From NCBI GenBank assembly GCA_963808725.1, contig CAWEGO010000002.1:1481511-1521510 (forward strand): DNA of 40,000 nucleotides. The letters are read 5' to 3'. The notes beneath the pieces are model-generated. The model made no database searches, had not been told where the DNA came from, and saw nothing but the letters and a program-made list of their open reading frames with translations. Below are positions 6,613 through 31,549 of the stretch, one piece after another (the stretch's first letter is position 1; each line of letters opens with the position of its first letter). The position numbers and the translations under genes are program-made. Source of the DNA: an uncultured Acidobacteriota bacterium. GTDB lineage: Bacteria > Acidobacteriota > Terriglobia > Terriglobales > Acidobacteriaceae.

Positions 6613-8115
6613 ATGGGCCGTATAATCAGCAGACCCGCGATGGTCCGTCCCGATTACAAAGAGTTCTCGCGCCTGGCGCAGGAATCGACGCTGATCCCGC
6701 TGACTAAGTCGGTCACCGCCGACCTGCAGACCCCGGTGTCGGCCTTCCTGGCCATCGCCGGCCAGGAGCGGCGGGCCTTCCTGCTGGAATCCGTGGAAGG
6801 GGGAGAGAAGATCGGCCGCTACACCTTCCTGGGCGCGCGTCCTTATATGGCGGTCACGGCGCGCGGACGCGAGATCACCGTCGAGCGCGGCAAAGAGCGG
6901 AAGAGGCTTACCGGCAGCATCTTCGAGGTGCTGCGCGATCTCCTGGGACAGCACCGGCCCGCGCCCGTGGAGGGCCTGCCGCCATTCACTTCGGGCGCGG
7001 TCGGATTCTTTGCCTACGACGTGGTGCGCCAGTTGGAGAAGCTGCCCTCCACGGCCAGGCTGGACACGCACACGCCGGATTGCGTGATGATGTTCTTCGA
7101 TCGCCTCTTGGCCTTCGACCACCTGCGGCACCAGATCCACCTGATCGCGGCTGCCGACCTGACGCGCGAATCCCCGCGCGCGGCCTATGACCGCGCGGTG
7201 CGCGACCTCGCGGCGCTGGAAAAGCGGCTGGCGGCGGGGATGCGTCCGCGCCATGTGCGCCGTGCGCGCAAGGCCGGCGCGCTCAAAATCAAGCCCGTCA
7301 CCAGCCGGCAGCAGTTTCTGGAGAGCGTCCGCCGGGCCAAGGAGTACATCGCCGCCGGAGACATTTTCCAGGTGGTGCTCTCGCAGCGCTTCGACTTCGA
7401 GCCCGAGGCGGCGCCGTTCAACATCTATCGTGCGCTGCGCACGGTCAATCCCTCGCCCTATCTTTATTTCTTGCGCATCGACGACACCCACATCCTCGGC
7501 TCTTCGCCGGAGATGCTGGTGCGCGTGAACGGACGGCGCCTCGAATACCGGCCCATCGCGGGCACGCGTCCGCGGGGCGCGAACGACGCCGAAGACAAGC
7601 GCCTCGAGGACGAGCTGCGCCAGGACGAGAAAGAGCGCGCCGAGCACGTCATGCTGGTGGACCTGGGACGGAACGACGTCGGCAGGGTGAGCGAGTACGG
7701 CTCGGTGAAAGTACGCGACCTGATGTACGTGGAGCGCTACAGCCACGTCATGCACCTGGTCTCGGCCATCGAGGGCTGCCTGCGTCCGGAACTCGGCGCG
7801 CTGGACGCCTTCGCGGCCTGCTTCCCCGCCGGCACGCTGAGCGGCGCGCCCAAGGTGCGGGCCATGCAGATCATCGAGGAGCTGGAACCGGTCCGCCGCG
7901 GCGTTTATGGCGGCTCGGTGCTGTATGCCGATTTCGCCGGCAATCTCGATTCCTGCATCGCCATTCGGACCATGGTGATGGAAAAGAATCGCGCCTCGGT
8001 GCAGGCCGGAGCGGGGATCGTCGCCGATTCCGATCCGGCCCGCGAGCACGAAGAGTGTGTCAACAAAGCCAAGGCGGCGCTGAAAGCTGTCGAGATCGCT
8101 AGGCGTGGTCTCTAG
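6613..8115 (+). CDS. trpE: anthranilate synthase component I
   Basis: 500-aa ORF. Motifs LLESVEGGEKIGRY, GDIFQVVLSQRF, GTLSGAPKVRAMQIIEELE and RGVYGGSV.Y. The real start may be ATG 6640 (MVRPDYKEF) if the TATAAT at 6620 is the promoter. Confidence 0.95.
   Translation: MGRIISRPAMVRPDYKEFSRLAQESTLIPLTKSVTADLQTPVSAFLAIAGQERRAFLLESVEGGEKIGRYTFLGARPYMAVTARGREITVERGKERKRLTGSIFEVLRDLLGQHRPAPVEGLPPFTSGAVGFFAYDVVRQLEKLPSTARLDTHTPDCVMMFFDRLLAFDHLRHQIHLIAAADLTRESPRAAYDRAVRDLAALEKRLAAGMRPRHVRRARKAGALKIKPVTSRQQFLESVRRAKEYIAAGDIFQVVLSQRFDFEPEAAPFNIYRALRTVNPSPYLYFLRIDDTHILGSSPEMLVRVNGRRLEYRPIAGTRPRGANDAEDKRLEDELRQDEKERAEHVMLVDLGRNDVGRVSEYGSVKVRDLMYVERYSHVMHLVSAIEGCLRPELGALDAFAACFPAGTLSGAPKVRAMQIIEELEPVRRGVYGGSVLYADFAGNLDSCIAIRTMVMEKNRASVQAGAGIVADSDPAREHEECVNKAKAALKAVEIARRGL
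6619..6628 (+). promoter_or_regulatory. candidate -10 element GTATAATCAG upstream of trpE
   Basis: A perfect TATAAT (6620-6625) is rare in this GC-rich sequence. The identical 10-mer recurs at 31550-31559 upstream of the S41 gene. No convincing -35 is seen. Confidence 0.3.
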
Positions 8116-8190
8116 TTTCCAGTTTCGAGTTTCAAGTTTCGAGTTTTACGGCTCTTGAAACTTGAAACTGGAAACTGGAAACTCGAAGCT
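8114..8190. repeat. heptamer-array hairpin (GTTTCNA x4 / TNGAAAC x4)
   Basis: Left arm AGTTTCCAGTTTCGAGTTTCAAGTTTCGAG, right arm CTTGAAACTTGAAACTGGAAACTGGAAACT. The reverse complement matches 28 of 30 positions. The loop is TTTTACGGCT. The element starts on the trpE stop codon. Confidence 0.9.
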
Positions 8191-8216
8191 AGAAGACATG
8201 GTTTTGCGAGCGAGCT

Positions 8217-8747
8217 ATGCGAGGCAAACGAACGCCGAATAGTCCGAGAGCACGTAGTCACCTCAGAGCCGTCGGATCTGGCTTTGCGCGCTCTCTTGCC
8301 CTAGAAATGACGAGGGCCGCAACGATCAGCTATGGCGAAGTGGTCCAGAGCCTCCGCAGGCTGGAAAGAGAGTACGTCCCGCAGCTGGACGGCCATCCCA
8401 AGTTTGCGAGGGAGCTGAAGCGTCGTATCGCCGAGAAACTCTTAGAGCAGGCGATCCTCCACGGTTGCAAGCTTTCGGTCTGCAGGGCACGCCTTAATGC
8501 AGCGGCGCGGCTGGGGTTCACGGATGTAGAGCAAAGCGCCCATTACCGTCTGCTGTACGCGAAGGGTGCGTTTGCTCGTGGACATAAACGGGTTGCATAC
8601 CGAACTGCCGCTGCCATTGCCACCGACCTCGAACAATCCCTTAGGAGGAGGCGGAAGAACTTACTTGGCAAGCATCTTCTGAAACTGACCAGGGAGTACC
8701 TAGAACACATGAGGAATGAGGAAATCGGAGGGCACGGGGAACCCTAG
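8217..8747 (+). CDS. hypothetical all-helical protein inserted between trpE and trpG
   Basis: 176-aa ORF with an alternative start at ATG 8307. GC is visibly lower than in trpE/trpG. No family recognised. Confidence 0.5.
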   Translation: MRGKRTPNSPRARSHLRAVGSGFARSLALEMTRAATISYGEVVQSLRRLEREYVPQLDGHPKFARELKRRIAEKLLEQAILHGCKLSVCRARLNAAARLGFTDVEQSAHYRLLYAKGAFARGHKRVAYRTAAAIATDLEQSLRRRRKNLLGKHLLKLTREYLEHMRNEEIGGHGEP

Positions 8748-8758
8748 GATGTCGGTCC

Positions 8759-8786
8759 TTTGAACGTGAAACTTGAAACGTGAAAC
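8759..8786. repeat. half-element: tandem TTGAAC/GTGAAAC/TTGAAAC/GTGAAAC heptamers
   Basis: Four direct 7-nt units end exactly at the trpG ATG. They match the right arm of the 8114-8190 hairpin. No opposing arm is present. Confidence 0.75.
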
Positions 8787-9362
8787 ATGGTCTTCGTCTT
8801 AGACAATTACGACTCCTTCACCTACAACCTGGTCCAGTATCTGGGCGAGCTGGGCGAGGAAGTCGTGGTGCGGCGCAACGACCAGATGTCGGTCGCTGAG
8901 ATCGAGGCCATGCGTCCTGCCCGTATCGTGCTCTCGCCCGGGCCGTGCACGCCGCAGGAAGCCGGCATCAGCATCGAACTCATTCAGCACTTCGCCGGCA
9001 AGCTGCCGATCCTCGGGGTGTGCCTGGGACATCAGGCGATCGGCGCTGCCTTTGGCGGCAATATCATCCGTGCCAGTAACCTGATGCACGGAAAGACCAG
9101 CCAGGTGGAGCACGATGGCCGCACCATTTTCCACGGCGTGCCTTCTCCGATCACCTGCACACGCTACCATTCTCTGATCGTGGAAGAGAAGACGCTGCCG
9201 CCGGTGCTGGAAATCACGGCGCGCGCCACCGAGCGCGACGGCTCTGCGGTGATCATGGGCCTGCGCCACCGCCATGCTCCCGTCGAGGGAGTGCAGTTCC
9301 ATCCTGAAAGCGTGCTGACCCAGTCCGGCAAACAGATAGTAGGCAACTTTTTGCAGCTATGA
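8787..9362 (+). CDS. trpG: anthranilate synthase component II / glutamine amidotransferase
   Basis: 191 aa. Motifs VLDNYDSFTYNLVQYL, GVCLGHQAIG (catalytic Cys) and GVQFHPES. Confidence 0.95.
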   Translation: MVFVLDNYDSFTYNLVQYLGELGEEVVVRRNDQMSVAEIEAMRPARIVLSPGPCTPQEAGISIELIQHFAGKLPILGVCLGHQAIGAAFGGNIIRASNLMHGKTSQVEHDGRTIFHGVPSPITCTRYHSLIVEEKTLPPVLEITARATERDGSAVIMGLRHRHAPVEGVQFHPESVLTQSGKQIVGNFLQL

Positions 9363-17010: not shown

Positions 17011-17186
17011 GAGTACCAAGTACCCAGTACCGAGTTACTGCGAACTGAGCAACTGGTTTCTTGCTGCTGACGGCAATCTTACCGCGGATTAACGCAGATT
17101 TGACGCACGCCCTTTGCCTTTACTCGGTACTAGGTACTTGGTACTGTTTTGCTTTTGCTCGGTACTGGTACTCGGTACTTGGTACT
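17011..17186. repeat. composite heptamer-array hairpin (NAGTACC / GGTACTN units) with a GCGGAT-type half-element in the loop
   Basis: Left arm GAGTACCAAGTACCCAGTACCGAGT (17011-17035). Its reverse complement matches ACTCGGTACTAGGTACTTGGTACT (17122-17145) except at one internal position. A second set of right-arm units lies at 17157-17186. The loop holds ACCGCGGATTAACGCAGATTTGACGCACGC. Confidence 0.85.
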
Positions 17187-17196
17187 ATCCTGCTGA

Positions 17197-17856
17197 GTGC
17201 TGCTCTACTACATTACCGACCGCAAACAATTTCCCGGGCCCGAGCCGCGCCGCCGTGAGCTGCTGCTGGCCCGCATTGCGGAAGCCGCGCGAGCCGGTGT
17301 GGATCACATCCAGCTTCGCGAAAAGGACTTGCCTGCCCGCGAACTGGAGTCGCTTGCCCATGAAGCTGTTCGCGTCATCCGTAAAACGCGAAACGCGGAG
17401 CGTGAAACCCGCCTCCTGATCAATTCCCGTTCCGACGTAGCTCTCGCCATCGGCGCCGACGGCGTCCAGCTGCCTTCCAACGACATTCCCGCTTCCGACG
17501 CCCGAGCTTTCTGGTCGTCGGCTTTGGCTCGAAACTCGAAACTCGAAACTCGAAACTTTGTTATCGCCGTTTCCTGCCACACCACCGAGGAAGTCCGCTT
17601 GGCCGAAGCCGAGGGCGCCGATTTCGCCGTCTTCGGACCAGTCTTCGAGAAAGTGGGAACGTCGCGGAGTGTCGGCCTGGGTGCCTTGCACGACGCCTGT
17701 CTCGGCCACATGCCGGTACTGGCCATTGGCGGCATCACGCTGGAGAATGCCCGCGCCTGTGTAGAAGCGGGCGCGGCCGGCATCGCCGCCATCCGCCTTT
17801 TCCAGGAGAATGATATTGCCAGTGTGGTGAAAAAACTTAGGAAAGCCGAAGGCTGA
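17197..17856 (+). CDS. thiE: thiamine-phosphate synthase
   Basis: GTG start. Motifs LLYYITDR, GVDHIQLREKD, GADGVQL, AVSCHT, GADFAVFGPVF and LAIGGI. Confidence 0.9.
   Translation: MLLYYITDRKQFPGPEPRRRELLLARIAEAARAGVDHIQLREKDLPARELESLAHEAVRVIRKTRNAERETRLLINSRSDVALAIGADGVQLPSNDIPASDARAFWSSALARNSKLETRNFVIAVSCHTTEEVRLAEAEGADFAVFGPVFEKVGTSRSVGLGALHDACLGHMPVLAIGGITLENARACVEAGAAGIAAIRLFQENDIASVVKKLRKAEG
17529..17556 (+). repeat. four perfect tandem TCGAAAC heptamers inside thiE
   Basis: TCGAAACTCGAAACTCGAAACTCGAAAC, preceded by GGCTTTGGCTC. Read in frame, the array and its flanks encode ...ALARNSKLETRN... Confidence 0.9.
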
Positions 17857-25899: not shown

Positions 25900-26958
<1,059 letters not shown>

Positions 26959-26961
26959 CTA

Positions 26962-27127
26962 TTTTTCGCCGCGGATCAACGCGGACGAACGCGGATTAAA
27001 ACCCAATGAAAACCACAGAGGACGCGGAGGAAGCAGAGTTTTTATCGTTTTTATCCCTCAGCGTCCTCGGCGTCCTCTGCGGTTTTGATTTCCATCCGCG
27101 TTAATCCGCGCAAATCCGCGGCGGAGA
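26962..27127. repeat. nested array hairpin: outer GCGGATNNNN decamer arms, inner GAGGACGC-type arms
   Basis: Outer arms: GCGGATCAAC GCGGACGAAC GCGGATTAAA (26971-27000) face ATCCGCG at 27094-27100, 27104-27110 and 27114-27120. Inner arms: CCACAGAGGACGCGGAGGA (27012-27030) faces TCCTCGGCGTCCTCTGCGG (27064-27082), matching 17 of 19 after reverse complement. The loop has GTTTTTATC x2. Confidence 0.9.
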
Positions 27128-27132
27128 ATTTC

Positions 27133-27696
27133 CTAAACCGAATATGACACGTCTTCGTCGTCCTGGATCTCCAGCGGAATGCCGTTCTCGACGGTTACGC
27201 CGGCCACCGCCGCTGCGTTTTTGGCGCCGCGCGACATGGCCACCCGCCCGGTGCGCACCATCTCCACGATGCCGAAGGGGCGCAGCACTTCCAGCAGTCC
27301 GTCGATCTTCTCCTCAGTCCCGGTGATCTCGACGATCACCGACTCCGGGGCCACGTCCACCACGCGCGCGCGAAAGACGTGCACGAGCTGAAGCAGGTGC
27401 GAGCGCGTCTCCGGATTGGCCGCCACCTTGACCATGGCCAGATCGCGCATGACCGTCGGGCCGCCGGTGACGTTGTTCACCAACAGCACATTCACCAGCT
27501 TGTACAGGTTAGCTTCAACCCGCTTCGCGCCCTGCTCGTCGGTATCGACGACGATGGTCATGCGCGAGACGCCGGGCTTGTCGGTGTGGCCCACCGTCAG
27601 CGATTCGATGTTGAAGGCGCGGCGGCGGAACAGCGAGGCCACACGGTTCAGCACGCCCGGTTTGTTTTCCACGTATACGACAAAAGTATTCAGCAT
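27133..27696 (-). CDS. ilvN: acetolactate synthase small (regulatory) subunit
   Basis: 187 aa. ACT domain VENKPGVLNRV..LF.RR.FNIESL.VG and a conserved C-terminal domain. Confidence 0.95.
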   Translation of the reverse strand: MLNTFVVYVENKPGVLNRVASLFRRRAFNIESLTVGHTDKPGVSRMTIVVDTDEQGAKRVEANLYKLVNVLLVNNVTGGPTVMRDLAMVKVAANPETRSHLLQLVHVFRARVVDVAPESVIVEITGTEEKIDGLLEVLRPFGIVEMVRTGRVAMSRGAKNAAAVAGVTVENGIPLEIQDDEDVSYSV

Positions 27697-27717: not shown

Positions 27718-29429
27718 TCACGCGTCTTCGGCCGTCTCCACAAGCGGGCTGGGACGGCGGATCATGTTGTGCAGGTCGGCGCCTGCCGGCACCATCGGGT
27801 ACACCGTGTCCTCCTGCTCCACCTGGAAGTCGATCAGCACCGGGCCGCGGTGCTCGCGCGCGTCGCGGATGGTCGGAACCACATCCGCGCGGTGCTTCAC
27901 GCCGGCGGCCCGGATGCCGAAGGCCTCGGCCAGCTTGACGAAGTCCGGGCTCAGCAGCGGGGTGGCGGCGTAGCGGCGATCGTAGAAGAACTCCTGCCAC
28001 TGCCGCACCATCCCCAGGTAGCCGTTGTTGATGATGGCGATCTTGACGTTGATGTTTTCCTGCACCATGGTGGCCAGTTCGGCCATGGTCATCTGGAAGC
28101 CGCCGTCGCCGACCACCACCCAGACCTCGGCTTCCGGGCGCGCGAACTTGGCGCCGATGGCCGCCGGCAGCGCGAAGCCCATGGTGCCCAGCCCGCCGGA
28201 GGTGATAAGCGAGCGCGGCTGCTCATGGTGGTAATACTGCGCCTCCCACATCTGGTGCTGGCCCACGTCGGTGACCACTAGAGCGCCGCCGTGGGTCTCG
28301 CGCCACAGGTCGTTGATGACGTGCGCGGCGTAGAGGTGGCCGTCATCGGGCAGATTCTGGATGTCGCGCACCGCCGAGTCGCCCTTGAGTTCGTCGATGT
28401 GGTGCCGCCACTCGGAGCGGTCGACGGACTCGACATCGGGCAGCAGGTGCTCCAGCACCTGGCGCAGGTCGCCGACCAGCCCCACATCCACCTTGATGTT
28501 CTTGTTGATCTCGCACAGGATCGATCTCCACGTGGATCTTCTTCGCCGTGGGCGCGTAGGTCTTGGTGTTGCCGGTGACGCGGTCGTCGAAGCGCATGCC
28601 GAAGGCCAGCAGCAGGTCGGCCTCCTGGATGGCCTTGTTGACCCAGGCTTCGCCATGCATGCCCATCATGCCGAGATTCAGCGGATGCGACGCCGGGAAA
28701 CAGCCCAGGCCGAGCAGCGTGGGCGCTACCGGGATGCCGCTCTTCTCGGCAAAGTTCCGCAGCGCGTGCATCGCCCCGGAGATGATTACGCCGTGCCCGG
28801 CCAGGATGATCGGGCGCTGGGCGCTGTTGATCAGCGCGAACGCCTGATCGTAGTCCTCGGGATCGGGCGAAAGGTCGGGACGATATCCCGGCAGTTGCGG
28901 CGCGGCGGCTTCCCAGTCGAACTCGCAGGAACTCTGCTGCGCGTCCTTGGTGATGTCGACCAGCACCGGGCCCGGCCGGCCCGAGGCCGCGATGTAGAAC
29001 GCTTCGCGGATGACGCGCGCCATGCTCCTCGGGGTGCGTCACCAGGTAGTTGTGCTTGGTGATGGGCAGGGTGACGCCGGTGATGTCGGTTTCCTGGAAG
29101 GCGTCGTAGCCGATCAGCTTGCTGCCCACCTGGCCGGTGATGCACACGATGGGCGAGGAATCCATCATGGCGGTGGCGATGCCGGTGACCAGGTTGGTGG
29201 CGCCGGGGCCGGAGGTGGCGATGGCCACGCCCACGCCGCCGCTGGCGCGCGCGTAGCCGTCGGCCATGTGCGCAGCGCCCTGCTCGTGCCGCACCAGAAT
29301 GTGGTGGATGGGATAGCGGGTCATCGCGTCATACGCGGGAAGAATCGCGCCGCCGGGATAGCCGAACACGTATTTCACTCCCTGGCGCACCAGGCATTCC
29401 CAAATGATCTCGCTGCCGGTCTTGGTCAT
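27718..29429 (-). pseudogene. ilvB: acetolactate synthase large subunit, split across three frames (breaks near 29024-29040 and 28511-28523)
   Basis: The N-terminus [27 protein letters not shown]...[12 protein letters not shown] is in one frame. [24 protein letters not shown]...HVEIDP is in a second. ...[15 protein letters not shown]...GDGGFQMT...INNGYLGMVRQWQ runs to stop 27718 in a third. Confidence 0.9.
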
Positions 29430-29461
29430 GGCTGTCACCCTCTCAAGAACTGTCAAACTTC

Positions 29462-29577
29462 TTTTCGCCGCGGATGAACGCGGATGGACGCGGATTGGAA
29501 TCCGGCTTTTGGCTCTTAGCTCTTGGCTCTTGGCCAAACCCGCTCGGCGAAAAGCCAAGAGCCAACAGCCAAGAGCC
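29462..29577. repeat. composite array element: GCGGATNNNN x3 half-element plus TTGGCTC/GAGCCAA heptamer hairpin
   Basis: GCGGAT occurs at 29470, 29480 and 29490 (10-nt period), ending in the palindrome CGGATTGGAATCCG. Then TTGGCTCTTAGCTCTTGGCTCTTGGCC (29509-29535) faces AGCCAAGAGCCAACAGCCAAGAGCC (29553-29577), matching about 22 of 25 after reverse complement. Confidence 0.9.
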
Positions 29578-29580
29578 GCT

Positions 29581-31254
29581 TCATCCCGTCACCGCACCCT
29601 GCGACGCCGACGATACCGTCGCCGCGTACTTGGCGAACACTCCGCTCGGATACCGCGGCGCCGGCGCTTTCCACTTCGCCATCCGCGAGCTGATTTCCTG
29701 GTCGGTAAGCTCCACCCTGAGCTGACGCTTGGGGATGTCGAAGACGATGATATCGCCGTCGCGTATGGCGGCGATGGCTCCGCCGCGGGCCGCTTCTGGC
29801 GCGACGTGTCCGGCCATCAGGCCGTGGGTAGCGCCGGAGAAGCGTCCGTCGGTGAGCAGGGCAACCTTGTCGCCAAGATCCGCGCCCGAGATGGCTCCGG
29901 TGACCGCCAGCATCTCGCGCATCCCCGGGCCTCCGCGCGGTCCTTCATATCGAATCACCACCACGTCGCCGGCGCGGATCCTTCCCTGCTGCACGGCAGC
30001 GAAGGCATCCTCTTCGAGGTCGAACACGCGCGCCGGACCGCGGAAATTCTGCATATCGTGCCCGGCGATCTTCACCACGCAACCCTCAGGCGCGAGATTG
30101 CCCTTCAGGATCACCAACCCGCCGGTGGGCTTGATCGGACGATCGAGCGGGCGCACGACTTCCTGTCCCGGTGTCTCGACGGCGGCGCTGGCTTCCTCGC
30201 CGATGGTCTTGCCGGTAACGGTCATGCACTCGGAATGCAGAATGCCGGCCTGCTTCAGCCGCCCTGCGAGCAGGCGAATGCCGCCGGCGCGGTAAAGATC
30301 GGTGGCGACGAAGCGGCCACCGGGCTTGAGGTCGGCAATGAGCGGGGTGCGCGCGCTGACGCGGTCGAAATCGTCGATCGAGAGTTCGACCCCAGCTTCG
30401 CGGGCGATGGCCAGCAGGTGAAGCACGGCATTGGTCGAGCCACCGCTCGCGGCCACGCTGGCAATGGCGTTCTCTAGCGCGTTGCGCGTGAGGATCGCGC
30501 ACGGATGCAGATCGCGCCGCACCAGCTCCATGATCTGTACGCCCGCCTGAAATCCGACCTCGTCTTTCTTGGGATCGGTCGCCGGGACACTGGCGCTGCC
30601 CATGGGGGAAATGCCCAGGAACTCGGTTGCGGTAGCCATGGTGTTGGCGGTGAACTGTCCGCCACAGGCGCCGGCGCCGGGGCAGGCATGGTTTTCGATG
30701 TCTGCCAGCTCGGCGTCTGTCATGCGCCCGCTGGCGTGCGCGCCCACGGCTTCGAACACGTCCTGAATGGTGACGTCGTGCCCTTGGAACCGACCAGGCT
30801 CGATCGAACCGCCATAGATCATCAGCCCAGGCACGTTGAGCCGGGCCAGTGCCATCACGGTGCCGGGGATGGTCTTGTCGCAGCCGGAGAGCGCCACCAC
30901 GCCGTCGAAGAGGTTGCCGCGCGCCACCAGTTCGATGGAATCGGCAATCACCTCGCGGCTCACCAGCGATGCCCGCATGCCCTCGCTGCCCATGGTGATG
31001 CCGTCAGAGATGGAGACGGTGTTGAACTCCATCGGCGTGCCGCCGGCTTTGCGGATGCCCTGCTTGACGCACTCGGCCAGGTGGCGCAGGTGGTAATTGC
31101 AGGGGCCGATCTCGATCCAGGTATTGGCCACGCCGATGATGGGGCGGCGCAACTCGTCGTCGGTGAAGCCGACTGCCTTCAGCATGGCGCGCGCGGGCGC
31201 GCGGCTTGCGCCCTCGGTGATCGCCGCGCTGGACCGCCGTTTATCCGCCGCCAT
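29581..31254 (-). CDS. ilvD: dihydroxy-acid dehydratase
   Basis: ~557 aa. Motifs [23 protein letters not shown] and [10 protein letters not shown] 31254 (MAADKRRSS) is the likely start; the ORF track uses TTG 31263. Confidence 0.97.
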
Positions 31255-31549
31255 AGACACCAACAGCCATCATTTGAAAATGGCTGATCCCTTCGCCGTT
31301 TCCAGCTGCTTCCCCCACGTTAGGCTACGTTACCACTGGCTGGGCGAGTACTTAGCTTACGTCGTATTGATGATAAGTCCAATTGATACTTATTTGGACA
31401 CCATAATCAAGATTTATAGGATCAGAATTTCCGGGGGCAGTCGGTCCCAGGCCGCCGAAAAATTCCCGCCGGGATGAAACGAAAGCGCCTCCGGTTGCGT
31501 CTTATGTACTTAAGTGAGGCAGAGCCGCTCCGCGAATCCCGGCGAAGAG

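Follow-up and report, generated by a model that had tools for sequence, protein, structure and literature searches.

A tandem-heptamer hairpin at the trpE stop codon of an Acidobacteriota genome is probably a gene-less relative of PF05635 cassettes

What is the long hairpin that begins on the stop codon of trpE in an uncultured soil bacterium of the Acidobacteriaceae? The hairpin lies in a 40,000-nt stretch of the genome, hereinafter designated the window (GenBank assembly GCA_963808725.1, contig CAWEGO010000002.1, positions 1,481,511 to 1,521,510), and the whole assembly comprises 4.9 Mb in 5 contigs with 62% G+C. The initial annotation, made from the letters of the window, described its stem as two opposed arrays of tandem heptamers. 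Here, we compare the hairpin with the rest of its genome and with the genomes of its relatives. We conclude, with a probability of about 0.6, that it belongs, as a member without a gene, to a class of intercistronic elements that has been amplified in this lineage and whose arrays are the arms of cassettes that carry a PF05635 gene and resemble the intervening sequences (IVSs) of 23S rRNA. The genome of the window is designated G000, other G numbers are genomes of relatives, and L numbers are fetched loci.

The trpE-trpG region of the window contains the following features, for which tandem arrays were called by Tandem Repeats Finder (TRF) where indicated.

6613..8115, plus strand: trpE, anthranilate synthase component I (Pfam Chorismate_bind and Anth_synt_I_N; sequence)
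8111..8146, unstranded: left arm of the hairpin, 4.7 tandem AGTTTCN heptamers (sequence, repeat finder, TRF)
8147..8157, unstranded: loop, 10-11 nt by register (repeat finder, RNA folding)
8158..8193, unstranded: right arm of the hairpin, 4.4 tandem NGAAACT heptamers (repeat finder, TRF, RNA folding)
8217..8747, plus strand: conserved hypothetical gene, 146-176 aa, without a Pfam or NCBIfam family (family scans, homologue search)
8759..8786, unstranded: solitary right-arm-type array of about 3.4 GAAACGT/GAAACTT units, ending on the trpG ATG (TRF, junction comparison)
8787..9362, plus strand: trpG, glutamine amidotransferase class I (family scan)

The trpE open reading frame (ORF) encodes 500 aa, and its stop codon, TAG at 8113-8115, overlaps the first AGTTTCN unit. 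Specifically, the letters run TAG-TTTCCAG-TTTCGAG-TTTCAAG-TTTCGAG-TTT, followed by about 10 nt and the complementary run. TRF reports AGTTTCG x4.7 at 8114-8146 and GAAACTG x4.4 at 8157-8187. The repeat finder pairs 8111-8146 with 8158-8193 (36 nt, 86% complementary, 11-nt loop), while a register shifted by one unit pairs 8111-8143 with 8154-8186 (33 nt, 91%, 10-nt loop). The latter corresponds to 30 of 33 complementary positions, consistent with the 28 of 30 and the 10-nt loop given by the initial annotation. The mismatches of the right arm to the left arm fall mostly at the degenerate position, and in the predicted stem most unit boundaries contain an unpaired position. RNA of the plus strand has a minimum free energy (MFE) of −50.4 kcal/mol (z −8.1), which was equalled by 0 of 200 shuffles, and RNA of the minus strand has an MFE of −41.1 kcal/mol (z −7.5).

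The hairpin is not part of an rRNA gene. An Rfam scan of the whole window at the gathering threshold returned no match, hence no rRNA, and the hairpin sits between trpE and a protein-coding gene rather than in helix 25 or 45 of 23S rRNA. No T-run follows position 8193, and a scan for consensus terminators returned nothing at this site. Like the other array hairpins described below, it has at least three tandem units of 7-9 nt per arm, a degenerate position in the unit, and an inverted partner nearby. No PF05635/TIGR02436 gene lies between its arms, and it is filed here as a gene-less relative, not as a cassette.

Comparison of the trpE-trpG junction among relatives shows what else can occupy this site. 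The junction is occupied in all compared members of the genus, as follows.

G000: hairpin, 176-aa gene of no known family, and GAAACGT array 8759-8786 abutting the trpG ATG
G002: bare AGTTTCN hairpin, which fills the 73-nt spacer
G006: ACGTTTC hairpin, a further array, an intact 120-aa PF05635 gene, and a GAAACGT array ending on the trpG ATG
G003: AAGTGGN arms enclosing a different allele of an intact PF05635 gene
G001, G004 and G007: PF05635 gene truncated or frameshifted, with one or both arrays kept
G005: ACGTTTC-type arrays, then the contig end

The junction gene of the congeners belongs to PF05635/TIGR02436 (annotated as 'four helix bundle protein' or 23S-rRNA-IVS protein) and has a weak match to Avd of diversity-generating retroelements. 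In G000, the gene at 8217-8747 takes the spot where congeners have the PF05635 gene, and the solitary array at 8759-8786 corresponds in position to the right arm directly before the trpG start in G006, G001 and G004. Outside the genus, the element is missing: in three sister-family outgroups with both genes in view (L018-L020), the trpE-trpG gap is 0-43 nt and contains no element. The hairpin is thus dispensable, because trpE directly abuts trpG in these genomes.

The 176-aa ORF itself has 29 homologues with 47-87% identity. It was considered as a divergent PF05635 protein and rejected, as it belongs to no Pfam or NCBIfam family; it was also rejected as array-flanked cargo, as flanking arrays are absent in three homologue contexts. 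One homologue (L133) is wedged between two redox genes with overlapping stops and starts, one (L132) lies beside a Y1 transposase, and one (L136) follows an RHS-repeat gene and precedes an insertion sequence.

The association between arrays and PF05635 genes extends to the whole genome, and it is the context that the initial annotation missed: the arrays are the arms of PF05635 gene cassettes. G000 has 11 PF05635 matches, representing 10 loci. A tandem array adjoins the gene at 10 of 10 loci, and arms are present on both sides at 9 of 10; the right arm at C2:706974 was uncalled by TRF and was seen by eye, and only a right arm was found at C2:970152. In a cassette, the left array is separated from the gene by 20-40 nt that include a Shine-Dalgarno-like stretch, and the complementary array follows the gene. 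The ten loci use eight unit families, and three of the genes are pseudogenes. Two pairs of cassettes (L023/L026 and L029/L030) share their arms and are 77% identical over about 450 nt, from outer arm edge to outer arm edge. Because the homology ends exactly at the outer arm edges and the flanks are unrelated, the arm-gene-arm unit has been copied as a discrete block.

The PF05635 genes of G000 fall into two subfamilies (L022-L028 versus L029, L030 and L031), designated 'NIAEG' and 'ANYRA'. The 'NIAEG' type has mostly heptamer arms; the 'ANYRA' type (3 genes) always has octamer arms, ATCGGGTN or ATTGATTC.

The same arrangement occurs in other phyla. Using an alignment of these PF05635 proteins, we scanned one genome per species and obtained 80 loci in Acidobacteriota, Chloroflexota, Planctomycetota, Bacteroidota, Gemmatimonadota, Patescibacteria, Elusimicrobiota, Proteobacteria, Cyanobacteria, Firmicutes and others. 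Inverted arrays flank the gene at 46 of these 80 related loci, which represent more than 10 phyla (43 with heptamers and 3 with octamers, the units being nearly all different), a fraction overstated by the bias of the survey toward loci most like the armed genes of this genus.

Array hairpins in G000 are far more numerous than cassettes. Period-7 arrays of at least three copies number 443 in the genome and 19 in a third-order Markov simulation (TRF), and at a score of at least 40 the numbers are 293 and 0. Neighbouring arrays form 115 inverted pairs versus 8 direct pairs, so the arrays are enriched over chance genome-wide. The 115 inverted pairs comprise 85 pairs of heptamers, 28 of octamers, 1 of 6-mers and 1 of 9-mers, and the loop is at most 150 nt in 107 of them. 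When the patterns allow for degenerate positions, an inverted partner lies within 1500 nt for 265 of 780 arrays, versus 5 for a reversed-unit control; most gaps cluster below 100 nt, and a minor second peak lies at 350-450 nt. The median array hairpin is 84 nt long with an MFE of −44 kcal/mol.

The main unit families are AGTACCN, GCTYTTG, AGCANTC, AGTTTCN/ACGTTTC and GTCAGTT, the octamers ATCGGGTN and ATTGAKTC, and the decamer CGCGGATNAA, and the commonest pattern is a single degenerate position per unit (345 of 780 arrays). The initial annotation's view that an architecture recurs, rather than one repeated sequence, therefore holds across the 115 inverted pairs and their many families, and the common generating mechanism that it proposed is borne out to the extent that a common origin is likely. 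Its statement that the unit sequences are completely different does not hold. AGTTGCG, AGTACCG and AGTTTCG units alternate in one array at C3:480875. The seven main families have a fixed polarity, with 66 standard hairpins and 0 'inside-out' ones. In addition, the left-arm units commonly contain AG and less commonly the complementary CT: of 42 distinct units in G000, 29 have AG and 10 have CT, and of 46 cassette arms in other phyla, 36 have AG and 12 have CT. Because units mix within arrays, polarity is fixed and the AG motif is common, the families are not unrelated.

The two arms of a hairpin were also considered as exact inverted copies of each other. Complementarity between arms is 93% at the fixed positions and 42.5% at the degenerate position, compared with 36.8 ± 2.5% for random pairing, and more than half of the unit junctions in the stems carry a mismatch. 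Exact copying was rejected: because complementarity at the degenerate position is near random, the arms are not simple inverted copies.

This bears on an origin of each hairpin in place, in which slippage would expand a seed and quasi-palindrome correction by template switching would copy the opposite arm, with neither mobility nor a link to a protein. Consistent with such an origin, the number of units varies between arms and among orthologues, hairpins of one family have unrelated loops, and a heptamer excess has been ascribed to polymerase slippage in work cited in the excerpted text of PMC4692102. Slippage would homogenise the degenerate position; instead, neighbouring units differ and the arms are uncorrelated there. 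Nor does it account for the same units at dozens of loci in one polarity only (66 to 0), for arm-to-arm homologous copies in unrelated contexts, or for the same composite at different loci in different genomes. We consider origin by slippage improbable.

The unit, with six fixed positions and one free position, could alternatively be a protein-binding site at the DNA level, either an operator-like half-site of a global regulator or a site for a pentameric PF05635 protein. Avd-like proteins bind nucleic acid. The preference for AG over CT in the left arm is also in line with this idea, which is the interpretation given by the Geobacter authors in the excerpted part of their paper (PMC2700814). 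The seven main families and many minor ones, however, would need as many regulators, the sites follow stop codons rather than lying at promoters, and most hairpins have no PF05635 gene nearby. We give this explanation as little credence as slippage.

The placement of the hairpins is not random. Gene calls were made with a crude in-house caller, for which stops are exact and starts approximate. Leaving aside pairs with more than half of their length in called genes, 99 of 115 remain, of which 77 lie in co-directional, 10 in convergent and 12 in divergent spacers. The left arm overlaps the upstream stop codon or lies at most 12 nt after it in 59 of 73 co-directional cases, and the hairpin fills a median of 78% of the spacer. 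In the spc ribosomal-protein operon, three hairpins are present upstream of secY, at rplF|rplR, rplR|rpsE and rpsE|rplO. T-runs follow the hairpin in 5 of 73 cases on the sense side and 6 of 73 on the antisense side. Intrinsic termination was therefore rejected, given the 5 of 73 T-runs, the empty consensus scan at the trpE site and the hairpins inside the spc operon.

The three spc hairpins occupy consecutive spacers (G000:C1:32905-34247, equivalent to L151:1406-2748). The gene for L30, rpmD, was not found between rpsE and rplO, where a GCTCTTG hairpin occupies the spacer. We also observe that rplF (L151:871-1407, equivalent to G000:C1:32370-32906) is split over two frames with a Pfam L6 match on each piece.

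A hairpin that directly follows a stop codon could be an RNA element selected by the host, similar to repetitive extragenic palindromic (REP) sequences and bacterial interspersed mosaic elements (BIMEs). Specifically, a stem after the stop codon would protect the upstream cistron from 3' exonucleases or set operon processing; its sequence would be free and its family replaceable. The position after stops, the extent to which spacers are filled and the high stability of the stems (median −44 kcal/mol) all fit this proposal, as does the continued occupation of orthologous junctions, even where the unit family differs, that is described below for 16 sites and for the LOG-thiE junction in 8 congeners. 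Other observations do not fit it. The more stable RNA is the sense one in 35 cases and the antisense one in 40 (Wilcoxon p = 0.42), G-U pairs are equal, and the expected bias in stability between strands is thus absent. Three sister-family genomes do without a hairpin between trpE and trpG, arrays are also present in divergent spacers and in translated sequence within thiE, and the same arms enclose a gene that looks selfish. A stabilising or processing hairpin selected by the host is the strongest rival to descent from PF05635 cassettes, with which it is compatible rather than mutually exclusive, and we regard it as unlikely.

Turnover at orthologous sites can be followed between species. Sixteen G000 hairpin sites were placed by both flanks in 400 kb of one congener, G007. 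There, 5 sites carry the same family (2 with conserved loops), 8 carry a different family, 2 are empty and 1 is complex. One comparison connects a hairpin to a cassette: the AGCACTC hairpin of G000 at C2:1636576-1636697 has as its orthologue in G007 a cassette in which the same arms enclose a PF05635 gene (G007:C6:317982-318296). About 40 nt at the start of the G000 loop can be aligned to the 5' leader of the G007 cassette, although substitutions are numerous. The simplest reading of this alignment is that the G000 hairpin arose by deletion of the gene. The LOG-thiE junction is similarly variable among 8 congeners, with AGTACCN arms with or without nested CGCGGAT, a nested AGCTCTT run, a composite of CGCGGAT x3 and GGCTYTT, or an ATTGAKTC octamer arm.

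At one further site, the G007:C6 orthologue of C2:1212712-1212791, the left arm is made of four AGTTTCA units and the right arm of GCTGANT-type units, and the two arms are not complementary. This chimeric element suggests recombination or half-replacement between families.

The class is restricted to a lineage. All 9 congeners have abundant AGTACCN arrays, other genera of the family have 0-2 matches, and 12 sister-family genomes have none. The numbers of PF05635 matches and of inverted pairs are as follows.

G000: 11 PF05635 matches, 2.3 inverted pairs per 100 kb
G007 (400 kb): 5 PF05635 matches, 5.2 inverted pairs per 100 kb
G020 (400 kb): 4 PF05635 matches, 1.0 inverted pair per 100 kb
G014, another genus (400 kb): 4 PF05635 matches, 0 inverted pairs per 100 kb
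G025 (309 kb): 0 PF05635 matches, 0 genuine inverted pairs per 100 kb

Inverted arms and a gene-bearing relative exist here; a miniature inverted-repeat transposable element would additionally have target-site duplications and an autonomous relative that encodes a transposase, and PF05635 is not a known transposase. Target-site duplications at filled versus empty junctions were not evident by eye, no formal search having been made. The genome encodes 13 Y1_Tnp-family proteins (IS200/IS605- or RAYT-like), which, together with many copies of stable intergenic palindromes, is what would be expected of rho-independent terminators or of REP/REPIN sequences mobilised by a RAYT transposase. The 12 inspected Y1_Tnp loci are not flanked by array hairpins, Rfam has no match, T-runs are rare and three hairpins lie inside the spc operon. 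Mobilisation of the RAYT/REPIN type was accordingly rejected, and terminators and REPINs together are largely refuted and very improbable.

These comparisons lead us back to descent from PF05635 cassettes. The stems pair two inverted arrays, each with 3-6 tandem units that are mostly 7-mers and less often 8-mers to 10-mers. In this proposal, the arrays would form the ends of small cassettes, with a PF05635/TIGR02436 gene for a four-helix-bundle, Avd-like protein in the loop. Bare hairpins would be either leftovers after truncation and deletion of the gene or pairs of arms propagated without a gene. Cassettes and hairpins lodge between a stop codon and the next start codon inside operons, are copied as units that reach from one arm to the other, and turn over rapidly at the same junctions. 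The transcribed stem is most likely a substrate of RNase III, by analogy with the ORF-bearing IVSs of 23S rRNA, and the rnc gene is present in the genome. In the polycistronic mRNA, such an insert would not terminate transcription but would undergo processing or, at the least, be tolerated. Such processing or tolerance would explain the persistence of inserts between translationally adjacent genes of essential operons.

Of this, the comparisons directly demonstrate the anatomy, abundance and placement of the hairpins, the link to PF05635, the arm-to-arm duplication, the orthologous site that is gene-bearing in one genome and gene-less in another, the decay of the gene within retained arms, and the lineage restriction. 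Present or past mobility and its enzyme, cleavage by RNase III and any role of the protein are inferred.

Several observations weigh against the proposal. The 10-11-nt loop of the hairpin at trpE contains neither a gene nor a gene remnant. Loops of gene-less hairpins in the genome have no homology to the interiors of PF05635 cassettes, and derivation of bare hairpins by deletion is documented at two junctions only. The density of hairpins is only loosely related to the number of PF05635 matches; G014 has four matches and no inverted pair. Neither a transposase nor a recombinase was found, inspection by eye, with no formal search, revealed no target-site duplication, and movement was not observed. 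Specifically, no heptamer or octamer hairpin lies within 1.5 kb of the 12 inspected Y1_Tnp loci, and a single array lies at one of them. The armed fraction in the survey of other phyla is inflated, no trace of selection on the structure of one strand's transcript was detected, and cleavage by RNase III in mRNA is argued by analogy.

The loops of gene-less hairpins also have no homology to each other, with one exception. A 39-nt stretch with 92% identity is shared by the loops of C2:1454872-1455109 (AGGGAGT) and C2:614799-615069 (AAGTGGA), which belong to different families. This stretch may be another small element nested in hairpin loops.

A broader possibility, which we offer tentatively, is that the hairpins made of heptamer arrays belong with the PF05635 cassettes to a single class of mobile elements, intron-like and intercistronic, that spans the bacteria. 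These would home to stop-start junctions or to hairpin tips, be tolerated through RNase III, and account for much of the heptamer excess of bacteria, with the Avd-like protein acting in propagation or in the writing of arrays.

Four further array sites of the window are listed below. At three places, 17011-17186, 26962-27127 and 29462-29577, the initial annotation had reported the same construction as at trpE, and TRF and the sequence confirm the arrays as described.

17012..17186, unstranded: composite between a LOG-family gene and thiE (TRF, sequence, Pfam, congener comparison)
17528..17557, plus strand: CTCGAAA x4.3 array inside thiE, in frame (TRF, sequence, ThiE comparison)
26970..27120, unstranded: nested double hairpin between the minus-strand ORFs 27133-27696 and 25900-26946 (TRF, sequence)
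29469..29577, unstranded: CGCGGATNNN x3 array plus GGCTCTT/AAGAGCC hairpin (TRF, sequence, congener comparison)

The LOG-thiE composite has an AGTACCN left arm at 17012-17035 and right arms at 17121-17145 and 17158-17186, and its loop holds a degenerate CGCGGAT array. The array inside thiE is translated and adds about 10 residues to ThiE. The insertion is common to most congeners, via GAAACGT-type units, is largely missing in G007, and is absent from 4 of 4 sister-family ThiE sequences. The nested double hairpin has outer arms of three CGCGGATNAA units at 26970-26996 and 27094-27120 and inner arms of the GAGGACGC type at about 27016-27038 and 27056-27081, with two GTTTTTATC units in the loop. 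The ORFs on either side, 27133-27696 and 25900-26946, are presumably ilvN and ilvC, as named in the initial annotation. Six flanking-gene segments (the LOG 3' end, thiE, and four around two junctions of the ilv region) have no match in the 400-kb G007 contig.

In the fourth site, the CGCGGAT array occupies 29469-29495 and the GGCTCTT hairpin 29504-29534 and 29553-29577, and the element ends 3 nt from the stop codon of the minus-strand gene 29581-31263. A composite of TTTTCGC-CGCGGATNNN x3 and a GGCTYTT hairpin is found at this site in the window, and at the LOG-thiE junction in G006 (L141) and G001 (L142). This gene-less composite appears, from its occurrence at different junctions in different congeners, to have dispersed as a unit. 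The large ORF at 27718-29558, upstream of this element, consists of two overlapping frames. Its split frames and those of rplF are probably assembly indel errors rather than pseudogenes.

These results bring together, in one genus and one system, a heptamer excess that lacks an accepted cause and the IVS protein, and they link the unexplained heptamer repeats of bacteria to a specific gene family. At one and the same operon junction, relatives have no element, a complete cassette, a decaying one or nothing more than the hairpin, and families swap at conserved junctions. Insertion into essential operons such as trp and spc may be made harmless at the RNA level, and the Avd-like protein may have a partner nucleic-acid motif. 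Array hairpins of this kind should not be annotated as terminators or as regulator sites.

How do these elements compare with known repeats? Like REP, BIME and REPIN sequences, they are abundant intercistronic palindromes in operons, occur in mosaic or nested combinations, and possibly stabilise mRNA. REP and REPIN sequences differ in being a single imperfect palindrome with one consensus and a flanking RAYT transposase, whereas the elements described here have stems of tandem arrays, many families and no association with RAYT. The short tandemly repeated repetitive (STRR) sequences are specific heptamers, such as CCCCAGT, in heterocystous cyanobacteria, reportedly described by Mazel and colleagues in 1990 and by Vioque in 1997. 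For TAACTGA repeats, a single inverted case is on record (MacGregor 2015, PMC4679880). STRR and TAACTGA repeats resemble the arrays described here in being dispersed intergenic tandem heptamers of several families that often abut start codons (PMC4679880 for TAACTGA); they differ in being mostly direct arrays, with other units and in taxa other than Acidobacteriota/Terriglobales.

Paired arrays are documented in two other genera. Several classes of paired arrays of 7-, 8- and 9-mers, located between and even within genes, are described for Geobacter metallireducens in the excerpted part of Aklujkar et al. 2009 (PMC2700814). According to the same excerpts, they share with the arrays described here 3-5 tandem units, a degenerate position and pairing on opposite strands at variable distance, and one Geobacter class, TCTCCGTS, resembles the octamer family CACGGAGA/TCTCCGTG. 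They differ in phylum and in being read as sites of a global regulator, and the excerpts contain neither a link to PF05635 nor comparative turnover. Likewise, the excerpted text of Rehm et al. 2015 (PMC4692102) gives about 70-75 convergent inverted pairs of GGGAATC arrays per Xanthomonas genome. About 90% of these arrays are intergenic, mostly between co-oriented ORFs and much nearer the upstream ORF, and they mostly have about four units, with degenerate positions and variation between species. That study differs in treating one G-rich family as a G-quadruplex former, and its excerpts note no cargo gene; they date the record of a heptamer tandem-repeat excess in bacteria to 2007.

In searches of the literature for an association of PF05635 with repeats outside rRNA, only the Coxiella IVS paper (PMC4990558) turned up. 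A tie between arrays and PF05635 outside rRNA, a series of filled, decayed and bare states at one junction, and swapping of families were not found in the searched literature.

The 23S rRNA IVS of Coxiella burnetii has a 28-bp stem, GACAGAT heptamers repeated in tandem a variable number of times, and a PF05635 ('S23p') ORF in decay (Warrier et al. 2016, PMC4990558). Its stem is cut in vitro by RNase III of Coxiella and of E. coli, the IVS has been proposed to be a former mobile element, and the function of the protein family was reported as unknown (PMC4990558). The ORF-bearing IVSs of Coxiella burnetii and Leptospira are thus like the elements described here, in that terminal inverted repeats of tandem heptamers form a long stem and the PF05635 gene in the loop decays. 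The elements described here differ in lying between protein genes of operons rather than in 23S rRNA, and in being present in about 100 copies and many unit families per genome, most of which, including the hairpin at trpE, are gene-less; their cleavage by RNase III is proposed by analogy. The initial annotation had regarded the hairpin as the founding example of a design without a named class. In fact, the architecture as such has been published, though not under the name of a class, for Geobacter (2009), Xanthomonas (2015) and the Coxiella IVS (2016).

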